A DNA stretch of 38,091 nt from a virus (lineage: Duplodnaviria > Caudoviricetes). This document shows, piece after piece, positions 5,291 to 30,746 of the stretch. The stretch lies in IMG/VR virus record IMGVR_UViG_3300032373_000050, positions 1-38,091 of that record. One strand, 5' to 3'. Numbering within the stretch: the stretch's first letter is position 1; every line of letters begins with the position of its first letter. The notes beneath the pieces are model-generated. The model ran no database searches. It was not told where the DNA came from and saw nothing but the letters and a program-made list of their open reading frames with translations. The position numbers and the translations under genes are program-made.

Positions 5291-5854
5291 ATGAGATACT
5301 TAATCATCACACTAATGCTCTGTTCATGTGGAGCCTCTAAGGACACAGCGAGCAGCAGCGACAGCGCCGCACCGGAGCGAGAAGTTGAAACAGACACTGG
5401 GCAGGCCCCGCAAGACTCGGGCGCTCCTGATGACTCTGGCGCTCCACTTGACACCGGCGAGCCCCCAGAAGATACGGGGACCGCTCCCGATGACACCGGC
5501 ATGGGTGATACAGGTGAGGCCGAAGAACCGGAAGACCTCTGCGCGGATCCGCTCGGCTCTGTAGAGTGGGGCGTGGTCGAGTCGCAGTCGGGTACCGGGG
5601 TCTACAACCTGGGCAGCATCGAGGGGGACGCGGTGGTCTGCTCCATCTCATGTGTGGGCGCAGAGGGATGGCTGAGCAGCTCGGCAAGCTGCAAGGATGC
5701 TGACGGTGAGCCGCTCGTGCTCTCTCTGCCCTATGTGCTGGGTGAGCCCGTGAGCCTGTGTGTGGATGTGGGCGCAACAGGTGGCTGCGATGTCTACACA
5801 TCCGACAAGACACCATCGCCGGACGGGGTCTATTCTGTCCGGCTGGGAGGCTGA
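5291..5854 (+). CDS. Lipoprotein with DTG/DSG acidic repeats and a Cys-rich C-terminal domain
   Basis: Signal peptide MRYLIITLMLCS-C; seven DTG/DSG motifs; six Cys in the C-terminal domain. Confidence 0.8.
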   Translation: MRYLIITLMLCSCGASKDTASSSDSAAPEREVETDTGQAPQDSGAPDDSGAPLDTGEPPEDTGTAPDDTGMGDTGEAEEPEDLCADPLGSVEWGVVESQSGTGVYNLGSIEGDAVVCSISCVGAEGWLSSSASCKDADGEPLVLSLPYVLGEPVSLCVDVGATGGCDVYTSDKTPSPDGVYSVRLGG

Positions 5855-5855
5855 T

Positions 5856-6068
5856 ATGGAGCGAGCGAAACGCAGGCACGACAAGGTGTGGCACATCAAG
5901 ACATCCACAGCGGGCGTCATGCTGTGCGGTGAGTTCATCAACGCCTCCATGCTGGTCAACAGAGTCAACGACTACGGCGGGCTGCACTGCGTAAGGTGTG
6001 AGCAGGCGCACATAATCGAGGGCGACAAGCATAGAGCGCCCACAGATGTGATCCGAGGTGGACGATGA
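5856..6068 (+). CDS. Small zinc-finger-like protein
   Basis: Start ATG 5856 after GGAGG; H...C...CxxC pattern (WHI...LCG...CVRC). Confidence 0.6.
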   Translation: MERAKRRHDKVWHIKTSTAGVMLCGEFINASMLVNRVNDYGGLHCVRCEQAHIIEGDKHRAPTDVIRGGR

Positions 6069-6307
6069 GCAAGATTGAAAAAGCTAAATTCGCGGTCTGG
6101 CTGATCGTGCTCTTGGTGTGCGTGGCGAGCATTGTGCGCGGCAGACTGCTCAACATACCCTCCTACGATGGCGCGTGGACCAGACTGTCTACCGAGCAGC
6201 GTACATCCTCGGCTGGGTCCATACCAGAGGTGTACTCGGCCACGTTTGATGGGCGTAAATGCCTCGTGATGGTTGGGCCGCTGTTTGACGATCTGGAGTG
6301 TGAGTGA
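6065..6307 (+). CDS. Membrane-anchored hypothetical protein
   Basis: N-terminal hydrophobic helix; ATGA-coupled. Confidence 0.6.
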   Translation: MSKIEKAKFAVWLIVLLVCVASIVRGRLLNIPSYDGAWTRLSTEQRTSSAGSIPEVYSATFDGRKCLVMVGPLFDDLECE

Positions 6308-6777
6308 TGACTACAGGCAAAGTGGGGCCGAGAAGCAAGTACACCCCGCAGTGTCACGAGGACATTGTGGAGGCGTCAGAGCTTGGCGCATCAATGAAGG
6401 ATGCAGCTGCGTGTGGCGGCATCAGTCTCGGCACATTTATGCGCTGGCTCGCTGATGGGAGGGAGACGCCTGATAGCCGCTACCGGCAATTATATGACGA
6501 TGTGATCCGTGCGAGAGGCAAGGGCTGCCGAGACGCATTGAGACAGCTTAAAGCGCTGAGAGCATCCGACAACGAGAAGGTCAAGCTCGAAGCGGTCAAA
6601 TTCACAGTAGGCTCCGTGCATGGCTATAACAAGCAGCGTGTCGAGGTGCAGATCTCCAGCGGTGTAGACGAGATGACAGAGGTGGAAGACCTGCTCAAGC
6701 TCATCAAGATCGGCGGTGAGACAGCAGCTGCCCTTGAGGATGTTGACGACGACGAGCCAGAAGAGGGGGAAGAATGA
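6304..6777 (+). CDS. terS: Terminase small subunit (HTH type)
   Basis: GPRSKYTP...GASMKDAAACGGISLGTFMRW HTH, acidic tail, upstream of TerL. Confidence 0.75.
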   Translation: MMTTGKVGPRSKYTPQCHEDIVEASELGASMKDAAACGGISLGTFMRWLADGRETPDSRYRQLYDDVIRARGKGCRDALRQLKALRASDNEKVKLEAVKFTVGSVHGYNKQRVEVQISSGVDEMTEVEDLLKLIKIGGETAAALEDVDDDEPEEGEE

Positions 6778-7070
6778 GCACCAACAGATTGGGGAAATCC
6801 ATCATGGAAGCCTGGGATATGCGCGAGCGCTGGGGGCACGGCATCGGCACAGAGGAGAACCGAGACCAGCAAGGGGCTGAAGACATCAAGGGGATCTTTA
6901 TGGCTCGGCATAAGTCCGTGAGGGAAAGCGCAGCGTCTGACGCAGAGGCTTTCGTTGAGTGCCAGACGCTGTGCGGCGACACCCGCCCACACATCTGGGG
7001 TTGCGCCTGGGGGAAGTCCAAAGGCGAGGCTGTGCACAGGTGGGGCAGCACATGCGGGAGGCAGGTGTGA
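6774..7070 (+). CDS. Hypothetical protein
   Basis: 98 aa, ATGA-coupled to TerS. Confidence 0.5.
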   Translation: MSTNRLGKSIMEAWDMRERWGHGIGTEENRDQQGAEDIKGIFMARHKSVRESAASDAEAFVECQTLCGDTRPHIWGCAWGKSKGEAVHRWGSTCGRQV

Positions 7071-7273
7071 GCATAAGAGGAAAAAAGGTGAAGCGCGCGC
7101 CAACCCCTCCGCGCTATCCGGTGAGGACCGGGAGGATGCGTCAGTCCTTTGATACTGGTGCTTTGGTGCTCCGCTCGGGATCGGTGAAGATCATCCAGCT
7201 TGAGAAGGCTGAGTGCTCATCCTGTGGCGCTCCTGGGTACTGCGGCGCTCTCTGCGAGTACTGTGGAACATGA
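7067..7273 (+). CDS. Zinc-ribbon protein (copy 1)
   Basis: GTG 7067 overlaps the previous stop; ends ECSSCGAPGYCGALCEYCGT. Confidence 0.6.
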   Translation: MSIRGKKVKRAPTPPRYPVRTGRMRQSFDTGALVLRSGSVKIIQLEKAECSSCGAPGYCGALCEYCGT

Positions 7274-8676
7274 AACCCTCCCTCCTACAGATGGAAGCCA
7301 TACGCAAAGCTGCCGCTGCCTCTGAGCGGCTCGCTGCCCTCAAGGCAAAGTACCCGCTCGGCTTCGCACGACTCTGGCACAGGAAGCTGCCCCGCACCTC
7401 TCAGCGTAGAGCTATGCGACGCTTCACTCGTGACAAGATCATGTGCTTCATCTTGGGAGGGAACCGGACAGGTAAGTCAGAGCTTGGCGGCATGTGGACG
7501 GTGTGTCAGGCGCTCGGCAGAGATCACCCCATCGCTGCGGCGTTCATTAAGAACAACGGGCTGGATCCTCTCTGCTTCCCAGAGGGGCCGGGTGTGATGT
7601 GGGCTATCGCTCTCTCACACAAGGATAGCCGGCGCTATGTGCGGAAGAAGATCGCTACCTATCTCCCGTCTGGGTGCAAGTTCCGCAGCTGGAACGCTGA
7701 CGATGAGTGCGAAGTCACACTGCCTAATGGCGGCAGGATCGTGTGCAAGGCCGTCAAGCAGGGCGAGAGCGCATTCCAAGGCGACGATATCCGGGGTGCG
7801 TGGTTCGATGAGGAGCCCCCGAATTACAAGGTGGTCACTGAGACACTGATGAGGCTCGCGGACCAGCGCGGCAAGATGCTCTTTACGATGACCCCGCTGA
7901 AGGGTCAGACCAAGATGCTCCGCGAGTTCGTGCTCGCCAAGGTGAAAGATCCTGACGTGGTGGTGAGTTGGTTGCACGGCATGGACAATCCTCATGTCCC
8001 CGCTGACTTCCTTGAGAAACTCTACCGCAAGCAAGGGGCGCACGAGCGCAGGGCGAGACAGTACGGCGAGATTGTAGCCCTTGAAGGGCGCGTGTATGCC
8101 GAGTGGCAGCAGCAGGTGCATGTGATCGACCACTACTCAGAGATCGGCATGACCGGCAAGGACTGGGCCGCTGCTGACTCATACGGTGGGATCGACTTCG
8201 GGACGCGCAACCCGTTCTGCTACCTGCTGGCGCGTCACTGGGTGGAGAAGGACATCATCATCGTCTCGAAGGAGCACTATCAGGCAGAGTGGAGCCTCGG
8301 CAGGCACGCCAAGCGGATCCGAGAGCTTGAGAAGGGGCACGACATCCTCAACCGCTTTGCAGATCCAGCAGGCGCACAGGAGCGCGTAGATCTGGAGTGG
8401 GAGCACGACATCGAGACGGAGACAGCTATCAAGGACGTGAGAGCAGGAATCTCAGAGGTGGCCTCTCGGCTCACCATCAGCGAGGACGGCAAGGCGGGGA
8501 TCTATGTGCTCAGCGAGTGCGAGAACCTTGTCCGCGAGTGGGGCTCCTATGTGTGGGATGAGCGCACGACAAAGACAGACCAGCCCGAGGCCCCACTCAA
8601 GAAGGATGATCACGCGATGGATGTGATCAGGTACGTCTGCATGGGCGTGAGAGACAGCGGCTTTGGCTGCGGATAA
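7270..8676 (+). CDS. terL: Terminase large subunit
   Basis: Walker A GGNRTGKS, Walker B AWFDEEP, motif TMTP, nuclease motifs GIDFG, FADP, DDHAMD; start ATG 7270. Confidence 0.97.
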   Translation: MKPSLLQMEAIRKAAAASERLAALKAKYPLGFARLWHRKLPRTSQRRAMRRFTRDKIMCFILGGNRTGKSELGGMWTVCQALGRDHPIAAAFIKNNGLDPLCFPEGPGVMWAIALSHKDSRRYVRKKIATYLPSGCKFRSWNADDECEVTLPNGGRIVCKAVKQGESAFQGDDIRGAWFDEEPPNYKVVTETLMRLADQRGKMLFTMTPLKGQTKMLREFVLAKVKDPDVVVSWLHGMDNPHVPADFLEKLYRKQGAHERRARQYGEIVALEGRVYAEWQQQVHVIDHYSEIGMTGKDWAAADSYGGIDFGTRNPFCYLLARHWVEKDIIIVSKEHYQAEWSLGRHAKRIRELEKGHDILNRFADPAGAQERVDLEWEHDIETETAIKDVRAGISEVASRLTISEDGKAGIYVLSECENLVREWGSYVWDERTTKTDQPEAPLKKDDHAMDVIRYVCMGVRDSGFGCG

Positions 8677-8915
8677 TCAACAAGGATGGAAGCATGAGTT
8701 TACCTACACCGGGTCACCGGATACCGATGCCTGCCCCGCGATCCAATACTGCGCTCTTCGCGCTGATAAACGCTGCTGACCGCGTGCTTGACAACGGGGT
8801 GGCGTTCGGCCCTCTGGGGCCACACAAAGACACTGAGTGTGAGTCGTGCGGCGCTATGCGTGGCGGGGGTACTCGGTGCGATTATTGTGGGAAGTAGGCT
8901 GCGGATAATCAACAA
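8665..8915 (+). repeat. 19-bp perfect direct repeat flanking the zinc-ribbon gene
   Basis: GGCTGCGGATAATCAACAA at 8665-8683 and 8897-8915. Confidence 0.9.
8694..8897 (+). CDS. Zinc-ribbon protein (copy 2)
   Basis: Ends ECESCGAMRGGGTRCDYCGK, matching the 7067-7273 C-terminus. Confidence 0.65.
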   Translation: MSLPTPGHRIPMPAPRSNTALFALINAADRVLDNGVAFGPLGPHKDTECESCGAMRGGGTRCDYCGK

Positions 8916-9211
8916 TCTAAGAGGTGAGATATGGGTATGATCGAAGAGAAGACCTGGGAAGAGTTTACCGACGCGAAGCTGTTTTGGTGGGTCAACCGGT
9001 CGCTACACCTGCTCGGCTGGGCTCTCGTCAAGGACGTGGCTGAGGATGGCACCGTGCTCCGCGTCTTCCCTGCTCGGTGCAAGTTCAGAGGGTTCAACAG
9101 AGAGATAGAAGAAGACGGCTTCATAGGTCTCACAAAACACATAGCAGAGACGATGCCAGAATTGGTTGTAGAAGCGTCAGAATAACCAGCAATCTAAGAG
9201 GTGCGATATGG
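8905..9211 (+). repeat. 30-bp direct repeat (27/30) carrying SD and ATG, flanking the 8931 gene
   Basis: ATAATCAACAATCTAAGAGGTGAGATATGG (8905-8934) versus ATAACCAGCAATCTAAGAGGTGCGATATGG (9182-9211). Confidence 0.9.
8931..9185 (+). CDS. Phage hypothetical protein
   Basis: 84 aa, strong SD; TWEEF...LFWWVNRSLHLLGWA...FPARCKFRGF resembles a recurrent phage family (from memory). Confidence 0.75.
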   Translation: MGMIEEKTWEEFTDAKLFWWVNRSLHLLGWALVKDVAEDGTVLRVFPARCKFRGFNREIEEDGFIGLTKHIAETMPELVVEASE

Positions 9212-10014
9212 CACAGAGTGGAACATTAATACAAGGCGGGCCTATGCTCAGCGATGACATCATAGTGACTGATGGATCACACATGGACGCCAGCACGCCA
9301 GAGCTGCTGACGCTGAGCATTGGGCCCGGATCGCGCAGCCCTTGGGCTGATGGGTGCCCTATGTCTGCACATAGCGAGGGAAGCAAGCCGTGCACCTTCG
9401 GGGGCGTGGTGATCGGTGCTGATGGCCCTAAAGTTGGGTGCGACTGCGCTGTGGCCTGCGCCAATTTCCCGCACAGTGAGAAGCCGCCACTAGGCAACCA
9501 GCCCTCCAGTGTGCGCGTGATCGATGATCTCTCTATGGCTGGCTTGACCGCTGAGGACATCGAGTGCGCAGACTTGTACGCAGGAGTCAGCTTCGGCACG
9601 GTCCACCCATTTCGATACCTGCTCGCGGCCCATGTCGTTAAGCGGGATATTATCGTCATCATCGCGGAGCACTGCCAAGCAGAACGCACCCTTGAGTACC
9701 ATGCGGGCCGGATCAGGGAGATAGAAGGCGACCTGCCAGTGTTGCACAGGTTTGCGGAGCCCTGCTGGGCGCGGGGCCGCATGCTTGACAAGCACAACAT
9801 AGAGATGATCCCTGCGCCTGGGCGTGTAATGGACGGTGTGTCAGCTGTAGAGGCTCGGCTCACCGATGACCCCGGCGCGCACGCAGGGCTCTATGTGATG
9901 AGCAAATGCAAAGATCTGGTCAGTGACTGGACGAGGGGCTCAGCGTACCACGCCCCGCGCGCGGTGCATTACATCTGCGCAGGCGTTGAAAGAGTCACTT
10001 CACTGTCTCACTAA
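9208..10014 (+). CDS. Paralog of the TerL nuclease domain, predicted catalytically inactive, with a Cys/Pro-rich N-terminus
   Basis: 44/84 ungapped identities to this phage's TerL (hand count); GIDFG>GVSFG, FADP>FAEP, DDHAMD>AYHAPR. Confidence 0.85.
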   Translation: MAQSGTLIQGGPMLSDDIIVTDGSHMDASTPELLTLSIGPGSRSPWADGCPMSAHSEGSKPCTFGGVVIGADGPKVGCDCAVACANFPHSEKPPLGNQPSSVRVIDDLSMAGLTAEDIECADLYAGVSFGTVHPFRYLLAAHVVKRDIIVIIAEHCQAERTLEYHAGRIREIEGDLPVLHRFAEPCWARGRMLDKHNIEMIPAPGRVMDGVSAVEARLTDDPGAHAGLYVMSKCKDLVSDWTRGSAYHAPRAVHYICAGVERVTSLSH

Positions 10015-10072
10015 ACGGAACAGTGAACCCCTGACTGTTGCATATAGTGGAACGCTGCTGTATAGATGATCT

Positions 10073-12214
10073 ATGGGTGATCCCACTGGAATGGTTCTAC
10101 GAGAGACATGGTTCACGCGCTTCTTAGGTGCTGTGGGCCTCATTACGTCTCGTGCGCTGCCCCAAGAGCATGCTGCTGGCGCTGACTTCGCTGAAGGCAA
10201 CATTGCCGACAAGACGCTGTCGCCCATTGTATCGATGGCCACCTACGGCACGTTCCCTTGGGTGGTTGCGCCGACAGAGGCGAAGGCAAACGACCTCTCT
10301 GGATTGCCTTGGATCCTGACCACAGGACGAGGCGAGCAGAAGCGGATCCTCACAGATCACCCCTTCCTTGACCTCCTCGCGATGCCCAACTCTGAGCAGC
10401 CGGGTGTGTTGCTTGAGCGTCAGTGGTGGACCGATCACTATGTCTCAGGTGATGCCTACATTGTGGGTGTCGGTAGCGATCCTAATGGCGCGCCCACCGT
10501 CCTACTCAGGCTGCAGCCACAGCGCACGAAGGTTGAGGCGCAGACCACAGGGCTGCCAGGAAAGTATGTCTTTGAGGGTGGCTCAACCGCTGAGCGATAC
10601 GACACTGATGCAGTAGTCCATATCCGAGGCGCATCCTGGGAGGACAGCATCGCCGGCCTGTATGGGCAGGGTGCGATCAAACCGCTACTCGAAGACCTGA
10701 AGGCTGAGTATGCCGTCAAGAAGTCCTCCGTATCGAGTCTAGAGAGCGGGCAGCCCACAGGGATCCTCTCCCCTGCTGACCCGGTCAAGAAGTGGAACCC
10801 GGACATAGTCAAGAAGATCCGCGCTTCTTGGAACAAGGTCATGAAGGGCAACGGCGTCTTCATTAACGGCGGCGCGACCAAGTACGAAGCCATTGGTTGG
10901 GCCCCCCGTGACATGGAATATGGGACCCTGCTCGAGTCTGGACGAGCCGCACAGCTCGCAGTGCAGGGTGTGCCGCCTACCCGCGTGGGTCTCCCTGGAG
11001 CCAACTACGCCACCGACCGCCAGCAGAACAAGATCTATTGGGAGAACCGCATAGCAGACAGCGAGCTTGCTTGTGCGATCTGGTCGATGCGCGCCCGCCA
11101 ATGGTACCGAGATCCGACGCTCACCCTATCTAAAGACTTCTCAGGTGTCGAGGCGCTGCAGGTCAGCCGCACAGAGCGTCAGGCTCGTGTAGTCATATGG
11201 CACAACCTTGGCTTGTCTCTGAACGATGCAGCCAAGGAGGAGGGCTTCGACAGGCTGCCGGATCAGGAATTCAAACCGCCCCGCGTGAAGGCAGCGCCAT
11301 CGACAGCAACAGGCAACGCCGACGAACCAGATGAGCCTACCGATCGCTCCTTCTGGATGCTCGAAGCACCACGCGCTGAGAGTGAGGAGCTTGTAGCAGA
11401 GATCCCAGCGACCACCGAGGAAGGCAGAGCAGAGCAGTGGCGCGCATTCATCGACTCGGTACACGCACCTGTAGAGCGGGCGCTTAACATCCTGATGCGG
11501 CGCTACCTCATCGAGCAGAGCGAGCGCATTGCTCAGCGCATGGCCGACATCGACGAGGGCAGATCACACGAAGACAGTGACACTGTTCAGCGTGATATTA
11601 CAATCTCTGATATTGCTGCCATCTTTGGAGCAGAGGACGAGGCAGAGCTTCTAAGAGAGCTACTCGACTCGCCCATCGGCAACGGTGTCCGCAGGGCATT
11701 CGCTCGCACCGCGCGCCAGATGGGCACCAAGCTCACCTATGAGGAGCAGGCGTCAGCCATTCGTCAGATGGTAGCAGGGGTCAGCACGCAGGTCACTGGC
11801 ACCACAGGCAGCGCGATCACCCGCATCATCACCGAGGGCATCGAGATCGGCGCGTCAGTGGGAGACATGCAAGCGAGTATCCAGCGGGCTGCAGCCTTCT
11901 CACCGGCTCGTGCTGGTGCCATCGCTCGCACAGAGGCGACTCGCGCAGTGCAGGCGGGCTCTCAGCAGGCTTACGGCGATGCGGCCAACGCAGGCTTAGA
12001 CATCAAAGTCCAGTGGCTCACAGCACGCGACAGCCATGTCCGAGGCTCACACCGTGGGATCGATGGGCAAGAAGTAGAGCCTGGCGCACCATTCACCCTG
12101 CAAGACGGGGCGAACATCGGCGCACAAGCACAGGCACCAGGCGGGTTCAATATCCCCGGTGAAGACATCAACTGCAGGTGCACAACGCTGCCAGTGTTCC
12201 CGGAGGACACATGA
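10073..12214 (+). CDS. Portal protein (HK97-like) fused to a MuF/SPP1 gp7-like head morphogenesis domain
   Basis: Portal motifs HPFLDLLAMPN, GDAYI, VVHIR, GVPPTRVG; C-terminal IARTEA, QWLTARDSHVRGSH, EDINCRC. Confidence 0.93.
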   Translation: MGDPTGMVLRETWFTRFLGAVGLITSRALPQEHAAGADFAEGNIADKTLSPIVSMATYGTFPWVVAPTEAKANDLSGLPWILTTGRGEQKRILTDHPFLDLLAMPNSEQPGVLLERQWWTDHYVSGDAYIVGVGSDPNGAPTVLLRLQPQRTKVEAQTTGLPGKYVFEGGSTAERYDTDAVVHIRGASWEDSIAGLYGQGAIKPLLEDLKAEYAVKKSSVSSLESGQPTGILSPADPVKKWNPDIVKKIRASWNKVMKGNGVFINGGATKYEAIGWAPRDMEYGTLLESGRAAQLAVQGVPPTRVGLPGANYATDRQQNKIYWENRIADSELACAIWSMRARQWYRDPTLTLSKDFSGVEALQVSRTERQARVVIWHNLGLSLNDAAKEEGFDRLPDQEFKPPRVKAAPSTATGNADEPDEPTDRSFWMLEAPRAESEELVAEIPATTEEGRAEQWRAFIDSVHAPVERALNILMRRYLIEQSERIAQRMADIDEGRSHEDSDTVQRDITISDIAAIFGAEDEAELLRELLDSPIGNGVRRAFARTARQMGTKLTYEEQASAIRQMVAGVSTQVTGTTGSAITRIITEGIEIGASVGDMQASIQRAAAFSPARAGAIARTEATRAVQAGSQQAYGDAANAGLDIKVQWLTARDSHVRGSHRGIDGQEVEPGAPFTLQDGANIGAQAQAPGGFNIPGEDINCRCTTLPVFPEDT

Positions 12215-12969
12215 AGATCGAGCGCCTAGAAGGCACCAACGAAGCCGGCGAGGTCTCCCGTGAGTACACCATTGAGGTGCGCGCGCACGAGTCCAGAGAG
12301 AACGTGATCCGGGTGCGTGCATCAACTACCGAGCTTGACAGCTACGAGACCATCTTTGCACAGGACTGGGATACCTCAGCATTTAAGCGCAACCCCGTGA
12401 TCTTGTTCCAACACGACGCATGGGGCACGCTCCCTATTGCGCGCGGTGAGAACGTGGAAGTCGAGGGACAGGCGGGTGCTGCCGAGCTGATGCTTGACTT
12501 TGTGTTTGACACAGAGGATCCGTTCGCGTCCGAAGTGCTGCGCAAGTACAAGGCCGGCTTTATGCACGCGGTGTCTATCCGTGGCAGACCCGGCAAGGTC
12601 ACTCGGCGCGACCAGCTGCCAGAGGACCATTACGCATTCGGTGAGCGGGGCCTCTTCTACTCGAAGAACCGCCTGATCGAAGTCTCTGCCGTCATCCTTG
12701 GCGGCAACAGTGAAGCGGTCGTGACTCAGCGCCAGCAGGGACCAGCACCCACAGCAGCCAAGCAGGTCATTACACATCTGCGCAGCAAGCCAGATCTGAT
12801 GATCGAGGTACTGCGCGCTGCGCTGAAAGATCCAGAAATTCAACGAACCATCAGCTCTATCGCCCTTGCGGGACCGGTAGAGCCCGAGGCTGATCCAGAC
12901 TTCTGGATGAGCAACCTATCCGACGATACCGAGCGCGGCGATGATGCCCTGCCTTGGCTACAAAACTAA
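12211..12969 (+). CDS. HK97-family prohead protease
   Basis: NPVILFQHD, AVSIRG, LIEVSAV; GGAGG SD, ATG 12211. Confidence 0.9.
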   Translation: MKIERLEGTNEAGEVSREYTIEVRAHESRENVIRVRASTTELDSYETIFAQDWDTSAFKRNPVILFQHDAWGTLPIARGENVEVEGQAGAAELMLDFVFDTEDPFASEVLRKYKAGFMHAVSIRGRPGKVTRRDQLPEDHYAFGERGLFYSKNRLIEVSAVILGGNSEAVVTQRQQGPAPTAAKQVITHLRSKPDLMIEVLRAALKDPEIQRTISSIALAGPVEPEADPDFWMSNLSDDTERGDDALPWLQN

Positions 12970-12990
12970 AGTGACCGAGAGGGGCACACA

Positions 12991-14538
12991 ATGAGTGAAA
13001 TCACCGGGATCACAAACGACGATCTCTCAAGCCGTCCTAAGACGCTGGCAGCACTTCAGGGCCTGCAGAAAGAGATCCGCCAGATGGGCAGCGAGGCAGC
13101 ATCTGAGAACGCTGCTTTGATGGCCGACTTCAAGCGGGTCACCAAGAAGCTCACCGAGCGCGAAGCGTTCGACCACACTGCTGGCATGACCGGCGACGAG
13201 GACCACGCGCGGCACTTCGTCTTCCGCGATGCCCCAAAGGATGAAGGGGGCACCGGCGAAGACCGGATCCGCCTCTTCAACATCAAGCATGACGACGGCT
13301 ATGTTGAGCGCGGCCTGCTCAGCGGCCTACCTAAGACTGCTTGGGAAATGAAGGCGCAGGAGCTGATCGAATCCCGGTCCATGGTCCACATGGCCCGTGG
13401 CCAAAAGCGCCGGTTCAACGGCAAGCTGACCAGCCCCCTGATCGACAGCCAGATCCGCCGACACATGCGGTATGCGCCGCGCGCAGTCCGCGACGTGATG
13501 ACCCGAGAAATAGAGCGCCTGATGGATCCTAAGCGGATCTTGACCGACGCAGCCACACAGGGGCAGGAGTGGATCCCGAACCTTCACCTCCCCCTGCTTG
13601 AGCGCGAAGTAGATCTGCCCCGCAACGTTGCAGCGCTGTTCGCGAACGTGAACATGCAGACCCGAGACAGCACGGTAAATGTGCTCGACGGTCGCCTCAC
13701 ACCTCGCCTGAAGTCGCCTGGGCTGAACGACAACCCCGCAAACTTCACCCCATCCTCGCTGGTCACCAGCAACCGTTCCGTGTCGATCCCCGGCATGGTC
13801 GCGCGCACCGTGTTTGATGAGGACACATCTGAAGACACGATCATGAACAGTGTTCAGATCCTGCGCTTCGAGATCGGCTCGTGCATCACTGATGGCTGGG
13901 AGGACGCTCTGCTTAACGCAGACACCGCAGGCTCTCCTGGTGATGATTACGACAACTGGGACATCCGGGGACGCTGGGGGGTCGACACCATCGGTGGTGC
14001 TGGAGATCACCGCAAAGGCATCATCGGCCTGCGCGCTCGCGCTGTCGATGTGAGCAACACCACAGATCAGACCAGTGCGCAGACCTCCCAGGGCGCGCTT
14101 ATCGCGCTGTCCAAACTCGCGGCCCCTCGCGGCATCGGGCAAGACACTGTCTTCATTATGAGCCCAGAGTACGCAGTCAAAGTGATGTCTTTCACTGAGA
14201 CCCTGACTGTGGACAAGTTCGGCCCCCGCGCATCGATCGTCGCGGGCCACATCGCCAACCTCTTCGGCGTGCCGATCATCATCTCTGACTTCATGAGCAA
14301 CGACATGAACGCCAGCGGTCTGTACGACAACGCGACCATGACCAAGACGGGCTTCTTGACGGTCAACCGCACCCGTCACCAGATCTGGAACCTCCAGAGC
14401 CTGCGCGTCCGCATGCAGCCAGACATCAACAACGGCACCGTCAGTCTTGTGGCTGATGTCCGTCAGGACTTCTACCCACGCGGGCGCGCTCTTGAGAAGA
14501 ACGTCCACTTCTCGTACAACCTTGACGCTCTGGCATAA
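12991..14538 (+). CDS. Major capsid protein (HK97 fold) with N-terminal scaffold-like region
   Basis: 515 aa after the protease; GQEWIP, EDALLNAD, FIMSP, NLFGVPIIISDFM. Confidence 0.9.
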   Translation: MSEITGITNDDLSSRPKTLAALQGLQKEIRQMGSEAASENAALMADFKRVTKKLTEREAFDHTAGMTGDEDHARHFVFRDAPKDEGGTGEDRIRLFNIKHDDGYVERGLLSGLPKTAWEMKAQELIESRSMVHMARGQKRRFNGKLTSPLIDSQIRRHMRYAPRAVRDVMTREIERLMDPKRILTDAATQGQEWIPNLHLPLLEREVDLPRNVAALFANVNMQTRDSTVNVLDGRLTPRLKSPGLNDNPANFTPSSLVTSNRSVSIPGMVARTVFDEDTSEDTIMNSVQILRFEIGSCITDGWEDALLNADTAGSPGDDYDNWDIRGRWGVDTIGGAGDHRKGIIGLRARAVDVSNTTDQTSAQTSQGALIALSKLAAPRGIGQDTVFIMSPEYAVKVMSFTETLTVDKFGPRASIVAGHIANLFGVPIIISDFMSNDMNASGLYDNATMTKTGFLTVNRTRHQIWNLQSLRVRMQPDINNGTVSLVADVRQDFYPRGRALEKNVHFSYNLDALA

Positions 14539-28548: not shown

Positions 28549-28755
28549 ATGACCGCCAGCGAAAAAGCCCACCGCGCAGACATGGAACTCGATGCAGAGG
28601 GCCTTGCAGTCTACGACCACAGCAGCGATACGGTGCCCTTCCGTGAGCCGCTTGCAGACCTTCACTTGGGCGCAGGCTGGGCCACCAAAGAAGACTGCGA
28701 CACCTGCAATCATCGCGTCGGCGGCACCTTCTGCTACGACCACGCACCCTTCTAA
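28549..28755 (+). CDS. Small Cys/His-containing hypothetical protein
   Basis: GGAG SD; CDTC...C..H. Confidence 0.6.
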   Translation: MTASEKAHRADMELDAEGLAVYDHSSDTVPFREPLADLHLGAGWATKEDCDTCNHRVGGTFCYDHAPF

Positions 28756-28798
28756 GACCCCTTCACCCGCCCTCGGGGGCACGCATCAGAGGTAGACA

Positions 28799-28999
28799 AT
28801 GAGCATCAAGTATGCAGACATGAATATTGGTCAGGCGACGATCAAGCTGCTGATCACTGAGCACATGATCAAACAGGGGCACCTTGTTTTTGATGTCGAT
28901 TTCAATGTCACCGATGAGCGCAAGGGCGGTGGTAAGTACGTCCACAATGTATCCGCCTCGGTCACAGTGGGCGTCAAGCCTCCCCCTGCTCACAACTAA
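28799..28999 (+). CDS. Hypothetical protein
   Basis: Starts at the ATG supplied by the repeat. Confidence 0.7.
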   Translation: MSIKYADMNIGQATIKLLITEHMIKQGHLVFDVDFNVTDERKGGGKYVHNVSASVTVGVKPPPAHN

Positions 29000-29007
29000 G
29001 GCACGCC

Positions 29008-29658
29008 TTGAAGCGCATCACAATGTTTGCCCCTGGCACCAGAACGGCGCGCAACCTTGACGAGATGCGTAAATACGGGTTCAAGGTGCTAATCAGCCCT
29101 CGTTATCTGGAGGGGAACGGCTGGAAGGCTCAGTGCTGGACTGACGGCACTGTAGCCCCCTACGCAATCGACAACGGCGCATGGACTGCGTACTCTCAAG
29201 GTATCCCCTTTGAAGAGGAGTTGTTTCTACGGACGCTCGATGCAGTGGGTGACGGAGCTGAGTGGATCTGCATCCCTGATATCGTGGCTCACCCCGATAG
29301 CCTCGCCTTCTCGCTCTCGTGGATGCCGCGCATGCTTGCCCGGTATGAGCATGTGCTCCTCCCTGTTCAGAATGGGATGACACCCGCACAGATAGCCCCT
29401 CTTATCGGCCCGCGCGTCGGGATCGCTGTAGGCGGTGACGATGATTGGAAGCTGGGTACGATCTATCTCTGGGCGCAGCTCGCCCGTAAACACAACGCCC
29501 ACTGTCATGTTCTCAGGGTCAACAGCCAGAAACGGATCCGGCACTGCATGATCTGGGGCGCGCAGACCGCCGATGGCTTGTCAGCTGCAAAATTCGCACT
29601 CTCAACACCCAAGCTGGACAAGGCTGTCCAGTGGAAACAGCAAGGACTATTCATATGA
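29008..29658 (+). CDS. DpdA/TGT-like transglycosylase (candidate 7-deazaguanine DNA modification)
   Basis: TGT-fold motifs in order: YAIDNGAW, IPDIV, LPVQNG, IAVGG, HCHVLRVN, TADG. Confidence 0.7.
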   Translation: MKRITMFAPGTRTARNLDEMRKYGFKVLISPRYLEGNGWKAQCWTDGTVAPYAIDNGAWTAYSQGIPFEEELFLRTLDAVGDGAEWICIPDIVAHPDSLAFSLSWMPRMLARYEHVLLPVQNGMTPAQIAPLIGPRVGIAVGGDDDWKLGTIYLWAQLARKHNAHCHVLRVNSQKRIRHCMIWGAQTADGLSAAKFALSTPKLDKAVQWKQQGLFI

Positions 29659-29789
29659 CCAAAAAGAAAGAACAGAAGATCCCGGCCTGTATCAAACGGG
29701 TCACCCCGAGTTGCTTCGGCTTTCACAAGGCTGGACGAGGATCTATCCCGACGACCAAAGCCCAGCCGATCAAGAAGTGGCACCTATAG
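29655..29789 (+). CDS. Small basic protein (44 aa)
   Basis: ATGA overlap with the DpdA-like stop, AAGGA SD; MTKKKEQKIPACIKR... Confidence 0.4.
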   Translation: MTKKKEQKIPACIKRVTPSCFGFHKAGRGSIPTTKAQPIKKWHL

Positions 29790-29844
29790 AGCTCTTCTAA
29801 GACCCCTTCCCCCTGCCCTCCGGGGCACACATCAGAGGTAGACA

Positions 29845-30102
29845 ATGGTACACCGCACAACCAATTCCACGGTGCTGTTTGAGGAGTTGATGTTGATGGC
29901 TTCAGCAGGGAACGCTGTAGGCGCGACCCTTGGCGCTCAGGCCATCGATCGCGGGCTCTGCTCCGGTGAGCTTGAGATTGACCCTATGGCGATGGCCTTC
30001 ACACGCTTAGGCACAGTCGGCTTCACAAAGAAGCACCCGTCCCTAGCGATGGTGTCTGTGAGCCTGAACAAGATCGCAGACAAGCATTACCCCGACCACT
30101 AA
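29845..30102 (+). CDS. Hypothetical protein
   Basis: Starts at the repeat ATG. Confidence 0.7.
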   Translation: MVHRTTNSTVLFEELMLMASAGNAVGATLGAQAIDRGLCSGELEIDPMAMAFTRLGTVGFTKKHPSLAMVSVSLNKIADKHYPDH

Positions 30103-30125
30103 ACCAGCACATCAGAGGTAGACAA

Positions 30126-30350
30126 ATGTGGTTGCGATACGAGACAAAACGGCTAACAAACGGCACCTTCACCGACACGCTCGGGCGAGTGCACAGCAAG
30201 ACAACGGGACAGGTTTTCAGCCGCCACCGATCACTAAAGGCCGCGCGCAGAAAGCTGGCAAGCCTGCGTCACAACAAGGTCAACATAGACTACAGCTTCG
30301 CTATCTGGGACACGCACGCAGGGTGCTTCCGCGATGATGGCAAGGCGTAA
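30126..30350 (+). CDS. Small basic hypothetical protein
   Basis: Follows a repeat copy; FSRHRSLKAARR. Confidence 0.7.
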   Translation: MWLRYETKRLTNGTFTDTLGRVHSKTTGQVFSRHRSLKAARRKLASLRHNKVNIDYSFAIWDTHAGCFRDDGKA

Positions 30351-30371
30351 ACAACACATCAGAGGTAGACA

Positions 30372-30746
30372 ATGAGCATCCCAAACCTTGCCGGACACCC
30401 CAGCGCTACTGCTGCCTGCTCTGCCGAGCTTCTTTCGGCAGGCATCACGCTCCACACGGTAGACCCCGGAACCAGAGAGGTGCCATCCGCAATGGGCGGC
30501 ACTCTGGGAGACTGGAGTTTCCGCCGCGCTTGGCGCTACTGGATCGCCTACATCGACGGCCCCGGCATCCCTCGTGACAAGGCTATCGCGTTCAATAAGC
30601 TATGGGGCTCAGAGGTGCGCGTCGGTGGCTACGCTGGCGGAACATCTGTCCAGCATGCCTACGGCTCCGCATCGCACGTCGGCTCATACCACATCAACAC
30701 AGCGGCAGGGCTCAAGGCTTTCGCTGAGCTCCTCCGCAGTCTGTAA
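30372..30746 (+). CDS. Phage hypothetical protein
   Basis: Follows a repeat copy; WSFRRAWRYW...VRVGGYAGG...YHINTAAGLKAF resembles a recurrent phage family (from memory). Confidence 0.75.
   Translation: MSIPNLAGHPSATAACSAELLSAGITLHTVDPGTREVPSAMGGTLGDWSFRRAWRYWIAYIDGPGIPRDKAIAFNKLWGSEVRVGGYAGGTSVQHAYGSASHVGSYHINTAAGLKAFAELLRSL

Follow-up and report, generated by a model that had tools for sequence, protein, structure and literature searches.

The window analysed here, meaning the whole stretch of 38,091 nucleotides, is a 38-kb tailed-phage genome with a terminal overlap of 126 nt. In each of two microbial-mat runs, the phage was assembled as a 37,994-nt contig closing into a circle, which contradicts the catalogue entry of the phage record as linear and 38% complete. 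Over positions 5500-13500, the sequence was identical in both runs, with zero differing letters at a depth of 32-37; both runs may be the source sample. As the two runs gave the same sequence at this depth, an assembly chimera was ruled out. The gene order of the 5′ part is a terS-like gene (6304-6777), two small ORFs, terL, ORF 8694-8897, ORF 8931-9185, and ORF 9208-10014, the subject of this analysis. The portal gene follows at 10073-12214 on the + strand, fused to a Mu F-like head morphogenesis domain, and 3′ of this fusion lie a protease gene, a capsid-like gene, and the head-tail and tail genes. Such a portal fusion is common to many related loci. Elsewhere in the window, 28749-30380 carries a 27-bp leader (an SD-like site and a start codon) four times ahead of a row of small genes; two of the four leaders share a longer upstream part, and the arrangement resembles an early-gene cassette array. 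Positions 5291-5854 encode a protein of 187 aa whose N-terminus is lipoprotein-like and in which DTG/DSG motifs recur; repeats of this kind are known from Myxococcota proteins and might hint at the host.

The terL gene (7270-8676, + strand), the intact parent gene, encodes 468 aa matching Terminase_6N and phrog_2, with every catalytic acid present, and the nearest prophage-like TerLs are merely ~39% identical to it. On the same strand, it is followed by a 67-aa ORF (8694-8897) with a C-terminal CxxC..CxxC motif and by an 84-aa ORF (8931-9185) of lower GC content (53%), which matches phrog_16397 and, at 38%, a hypothetical protein of Brevibacillus phage Sundance. The 67-aa ORF resembles the end of ORF 7136-7273, which lies immediately 5′ of terL and overlaps its start codon. 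Two small ORFs with similar CxxC..CxxC ends flank terL in this way; the ends were identical at 11 of 19 positions, a value reached by none of 1000 shuffles.

The ORF at 9208-10014 had been described preliminarily as intact, preceded by a strong SD, and located between terL and the portal gene. The frame was found to run for 268 codons on the + strand with zero internal stops, and AGAGGTG lies at 9197-9203, 4 nt 5′ of the ATG, the same motif being present ahead of other phage genes. The position was also correct, but ORFs 8694-8897 and 8931-9185 separate the frame from terL. The SD-like motif is part of a leader at 9182-9211 (+ strand), a 30-bp repeat, 90% identical, of the leader of ORF 8931 (8905-8934). 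Public gene callers begin the protein at M13 (256 aa). A promoter and terminator scan near the ORF returned none above chance; a TTGCAT-N17-TATAGA arrangement, absent from the promoter scan list, was seen by eye at 10039-10067, just 5′ of the portal gene. The N-terminal 99 aa (9208-9504, + strand), for which no homologue was found, are predicted to be mostly disordered and contain 5 Cys and 11 Pro, as expected from the Cys/Pro-rich N-terminus noted earlier, and codon use in this leader weakly favours the ORF frame. No similarity to the TerL ATPase was detected in aa 1-99 at the protein or DNA level in any frame, and no frameshifted ATPase remnant was found. Pfam, PHROG, NCBIfam, and PADLOC gave no match for the ORF. 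A lead from Atlas features to terminase clusters (0.89-0.90) was at chance level and was rejected.

Behind this unrelated leader, aa 100-260 (9505-9987, + strand) form a TerL-nuclease-like domain with a predicted RNase H-like fold and a replaced active site. BLASTP aligned ORF 100-260 with TerL 281-460 at 73/180 identical residues (41%, E 2e-36), and the gapless block of 44 identities in 84 positions reported before was recovered at ORF 102-185, together with the motif changes GIDFG>GVSFG, FADP>FAEP, and DDHAMD>AYHAPR. When conservation was computed over 119 TerL-family nuclease domains, S128 (9589-9591, + strand) was found in place of D309, which is conserved in 97% of the members, and E184 (9757-9759, + strand) in place of D365, which is conserved in 119/119. 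Y247-H248-A-P-R251 (9946-9960, + strand) stands in place of D447-H448-A-M-D451, of which D447 is 94% and D451 99% conserved. The claimed loss of three catalytic positions therefore stands for D309>S128 and D451>R251 but not for D365>E184, a conservative change in which the acid is kept. The active site is nevertheless more altered than the preliminary description had it, since D447 has also become Y247, with H448 kept. Two deletions, both in frame, had been missed. Five codons (9931-9945, + strand; borders ambiguous) replace the 22 of TerL aa 425-446, a 17-codon deletion, and two further codons are lost at TerL 373-374. By its position, the 17-codon region would be the terminase-specific β-hairpin, as located in the available parts of PMC3074133 and PMC5389553. 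Among the conserved basic residues, substitutions affect R313, K388, R391, and R454, K444 has been deleted, and R372 and R400 persist; the tail after the last helix differs completely from that of TerL. By motif position, D309, D365, and D451 match D294, D347, and D429 of G20c, each of which is indispensable for cutting (PMC5389553, available part). Judged by these residues, the protein likely works as a TerL-family pseudo-nuclease, with the residues needed for cutting gone and nuclease activity predicted to be lost.

AF2 with the TerL alignment gave pLDDT values of 86-97 over aa 101-268, with one block at 74, and mostly <50 in the leader. The superposition on TerL nuclease domains proposed earlier was carried out, and the predicted model matched them with Z 12.7-15.9, led by D6E TerL (Z 15.9, rmsd 2.6 Å over 150 residues) and followed by P22, SPP1, and G20c, so that the fold appears to be retained. 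The AF2 model leans on the TerL alignment, and single-sequence AF2 of the ORF gave an uninformative pLDDT of 42; the Atlas model, a useful second view, reached a TM of ~0.8 to TerL nuclease domains. Thus, by predicted models only, the ORF shares the RNase H-like nuclease fold of TerL. The N-terminal ASCE ATPase domain, the three catalytic aspartates, and the β-hairpin before the last helix are missing, and the AF2 model contains no strands between helices 235-243 and 251-267. Co-folding of aa 96-268 with the phage's own TerL gave a score of 0.29 (mark 0.32).

Among 119 family domains, the best match of the ORF was its own TerL at 121 bits, the next reaching 70. The two were sisters in a 27-row tree (bootstrap/SH-aLRT 99/97), with branch lengths of 1.76, flagged as long, for the ORF and 0.36 for TerL, and they were again sisters in a quick tree of 121 rows (SH-aLRT 95). 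Moreover, 17 family-rare residues are common to the ORF and its own TerL, compared with 8 for the best other member (58 such columns). Recent gene conversion of the best-kept stretch was ruled out because at least half of its identical codons differ synonymously. When the differences between ORF and TerL were polarised, 30 of 40 fell on the ORF side, and 42 more were unpolarised; from statistics and models, the ORF protein is estimated to evolve ~4-5 times faster than TerL. Judged from these alignments and trees, the nuclease-like domain is derived from this phage's own terL lineage.

The junction between terL and the ORF is marked by repeats. A 19-bp sequence across the terL stop (8665-8683, + strand) is repeated exactly at 8897-8915, around ORF 8694, and both small genes between terL and the ORF are bracketed by direct repeats, which contain either the terL stop or a ribosome site and give the genes the look of inserted cassettes. 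No deletion variant at these junction repeats was seen in the two mat runs. One reading would have the two small genes inserted later, with the ORF leader once directly 3′ of the terL stop. Another reading would be an old tandem duplication of a small zinc-ribbon gene together with terL, given the similarity of ORF 8694 to the gene immediately 5′ of terL.

In a search of 5.8 billion proteins, the ORF itself stood alone among 768 candidates (lengths 147-469). A search of 1.84 billion representatives gave 14 matches, namely, the ORF itself, its TerL, and 12 TerL-like proteins, of which the four inspected all keep the catalytic motifs. No homologue was found in the viral contigs searched, 50,697 phage records gave one weak match to a full TerL and no other match, and a search for shorter homologues gave one short TerL piece on an 846-bp contig. 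One 939-aa TerL-like match (P0131) appears by eye to contain two intein-like insertions. Of 318 terL loci fetched, 313 had a nuclease-domain match and none of these had a second nuclease copy; the loci overlap between collections and have limited flanks, 2 kb downstream being present in 179 of 235 loci with a match. In loci with this portal type, the distance from terL to portal ranged from -10 to ~1,860 bp, and the gap held varied small genes. Of 48 gap genes listed, 30 were scanned and 6 matched PHROG families (three methyltransferases, RusA, a repressor, and one unknown), none of them terminase-like. Since a second copy is absent from all 313 related loci and the genes in the gap vary, the terL-portal gap is an accessory hot-spot and the ORF one of its optional passengers. 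At six related loci (L104, L166, L102, L192, L185, and L186), the portal match is on the strand opposite to terL.

The ORF was compared with described systems, using the available parts of the papers cited. Nuclease domains of large terminases are represented by D6E (5oe8), P22 (4dkw), SPP1 G2P (2wbn), and G20c (5m1q) and by Pfam Terminase_3C and Terminase_6C. Similar to these, the ORF has the predicted fold and topology, the hydrophobic core, and the histidine of the last motif. Unlike large terminases, it is a stand-alone protein in which the catalytic aspartates have become Ser, Glu, and Arg, the hairpin region, conserved basic residues, and C-terminal tail are lost, and an unrelated 99-aa leader is present; it also scores below Pfam, PHROG, and NCBIfam detection. 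Having no ATPase and no catalytic triad, it is not a large terminase. The nearest described precedent is the vestigial C-terminal nuclease domain of phi29 gp16, in which a terminase-type nuclease fold is likewise kept after loss of activity (PMC7672431). The gp16 domain lies within the sole essential motor protein and keeps DNA binding (PMC7672431), whereas the ORF stands free and is optional, duplicates a domain of a terL that is still intact, and has lost conserved basic residues. It is a stand-alone gene, not a dead domain fused to a motor ATPase and required for packaging. Terminase, the parent protein of the ORF, is bound by the Avs1-3 and Upx sensors, and the ORF has been proposed as a counter-measure. 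The known anti-Avs3 proteins are ORF55 and ORF83 (10.1101/2025.06.06.658234); the anti-Avs proteins covered there comprise a ligase and a DprA/Smf-like protein and, unlike the ORF, do not resemble the trigger (10.1101/2025.06.06.658234). In the main texts covered, mostly from outside subscription journals and including the accessible parts of 10.1101/2025.06.06.658234, PMC12803255, and PMC7824862, no stand-alone dead terminase domain or trigger-derived terminase decoy was found described.

Over 155 aligned codons, the comparison of the ORF with TerL gave a dS of 1.41, a dN of 0.51, and an omega of 0.37 (bootstrap 0.15-0.59), a test of moderate strength that rests on one sequence pair from one genome. 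When 80% of dN and half of dS were assigned to the ORF branch, the branch omega was ~0.59 (0.24-0.95), which is a rough figure. At positions conserved in ≥70% of the family, hydrophobic, Gly, and Pro residues were kept at 15 of 21 and polar residues at 6 of 19 (Fisher p 0.025), and this contrast weakens to p 0.066 at 80% and p 0.34 at 90% conservation. Conserved polar residues (6/19 kept) were lost about equally often as variable ones (16/49 kept). As they were lost no faster, the loss of the active site reads as released constraint and not as targeted inactivation. Stops, frameshifts, a uniform loss of conserved residues, and an omega near 1, which would mark a pseudogene remnant, were not found. 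The earlier view that this is not a decaying pseudogene is therefore supported by the open frame, the omega, and the kept hydrophobic positions, at moderate strength and from one pair. From statistics and models, the fold is probably under selection, and the ORF is likely to be a selected, fast-evolving pseudo-nuclease whose product is likely to act as a non-cutting binder.

Alternatively, the ORF might be a remnant left after terL was duplicated or displaced, a rear half on which selection is weak or absent and which, though decaying, has stayed open by chance. Its singleton status in one genome, the long branch on which 30 of the 40 polarised changes fall, the upper end of the branch omega interval (0.95), five new prolines, and a codon bias weaker than that of TerL (GC3 0.69 vs 0.79) are consistent with this, and the ORF was picked for being intact, which biases the no-stop test. 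However, under a neutral nucleotide model the absence of a stop in 155 codons has a chance of 1-12%, so biased, and a hydrophobic/polar gap this large arose in 0.3-1.3% of draws; both deletions are in frame, and 99 further open codons lie behind a strong SD. We regard decay as unlikely. A scaffold re-used for an unrelated job, for instance contact with a host protein or nucleic acid via the Cys-containing leader, or residual nuclease activity through E184/H248, would suit the new leader without a homologue and the persistence of these two residues. This reading is very unlikely, as G20c cannot dispense with any of the residues equivalent to D309, D365, and D451 (PMC5389553, available part), two of them are now Ser and Arg, and conserved basic residues are gone.

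Two further readings assign the selected binder to terminases or their partners. As an accessory packaging factor, the dead domain would bind one of the phage's own packaging proteins (TerL, TerS, or portal) and in this way damp or time cutting or motor docking. The ORF belongs to the terS-terL-portal operon, the nuclease half is oriented towards the portal in HK97, in phi29, and, by FRET, in T4 (PMC7617512 and PMC10359639, in the parts available), and the phi29 motor retains a catalytically dead nuclease domain (PMC7672431). Moreover, the surface stretch corresponding to TerL 335-354 keeps 9 of 12 polar residues compared with 16 of 60 elsewhere and would be the best candidate for a binding face, but this patch was not significant after scan correction (permutation p 0.06). 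The portal-contact tail proposed in D6E/T4 (available part of PMC5727402) is entirely different in the ORF, and the hairpin region, R313, K388, R391, K444, and R454 are gone. A protein working with the phage's own conserved motor would not be expected to evolve at 4-5 times the rate of TerL, and the second copy is absent from the 313 related loci. The motor-regulator idea of the preliminary description is thus weakened, and a packaging role is improbable. In a phage-phage conflict, the protein could poison the motors of co-infecting relatives or soak up terminase-binding proteins of satellites or prophages. An optional, fast-evolving gene in an accessory hot-spot would fit this use, and a kept fold whose surface drifts from that of the phage's own TerL could spare its own motor. 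We consider the conflict reading quite unlikely.

Of the readings considered, we rank first, though with less than even confidence, that the selected binder targets a host sensor and that the ORF is a putative decoy. The nuclease domain would have been duplicated from the phage's own terL, would have lost its catalytic and conserved basic residues while likely still folding, and would be expressed late, together with TerL, from the packaging operon. Acting by binding, the protein would tie up a host sensor that recognises the terminase fold and would not set it off, to the benefit of the phage during infection. Retaining the fold while the surface changes quickly would suit a protein that evades sensors reading the fold, but any free nuclease domain must lose catalysis to spare phage DNA, and the loss alone is no pointer to a decoy. 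In the accessible parts of PMC13601566 and 10.64898/2026.08.25.746987, SeAvs3 binds the natively folded nuclease domain and fires only when both domains are present; thus, a lone domain could in principle block it. SeAvs3 also recognises terminase active-site residues (PMC13601566; 10.64898/2026.08.25.746987), so that the earlier caveat on Avs3 holds, and residues of this kind are replaced in the ORF, one by Arg. Most characterised terminase sensors read the ATPase half; it is this domain that activates EcAvs2, Vibrio Avs2 (Avs2-trypsin), and Upx (PMC13601566). KpAvs2 is activated by the lone nuclease domain of three of five terminases (PMC13601566); accordingly, a free copy might trigger instead of block, which would be a liability. 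For KpAvs2, one paper suggests that some factor may shield a terminase during infection (PMC11564622). Among the features read by sensors, the ORF keeps the predicted fold, and the ATPase domain and active-site acids are absent. Because the ATPase half is what most characterised sensors read, Avs3 recognises active-site residues, and a lone nuclease domain can fire KpAvs2, the decoy reading is weaker than first presented. It is doubtful that phages repeatedly duplicate one terminase half, rid it of its catalytic residues, and co-express it with the packaging genes so as to jam receptors that read the fold. If they did, the ORF would represent an independent, lineage-specific origin, and the receptors would be Avs1/Avs3-like or other sensors of the nuclease half, which is similarly doubtful.

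As a trigger of the NLR-like immunity of bacteria, the terminase is close to immutable, and a free non-cutting copy of one of its domains is the simplest imaginable counter-measure or packaging modulator. A single uncultured genome without relatives is a poorer experimental handle than conserved examples. If the decoy reading is true, the ORF would stand for a class of anti-defence genes missed by annotation, having no Pfam, PHROG, or NCBIfam match, and it may reveal sensors of the terminase nuclease half. If the protein instead acts on the motor, it would be a new accessory part of a well-studied packaging machine.
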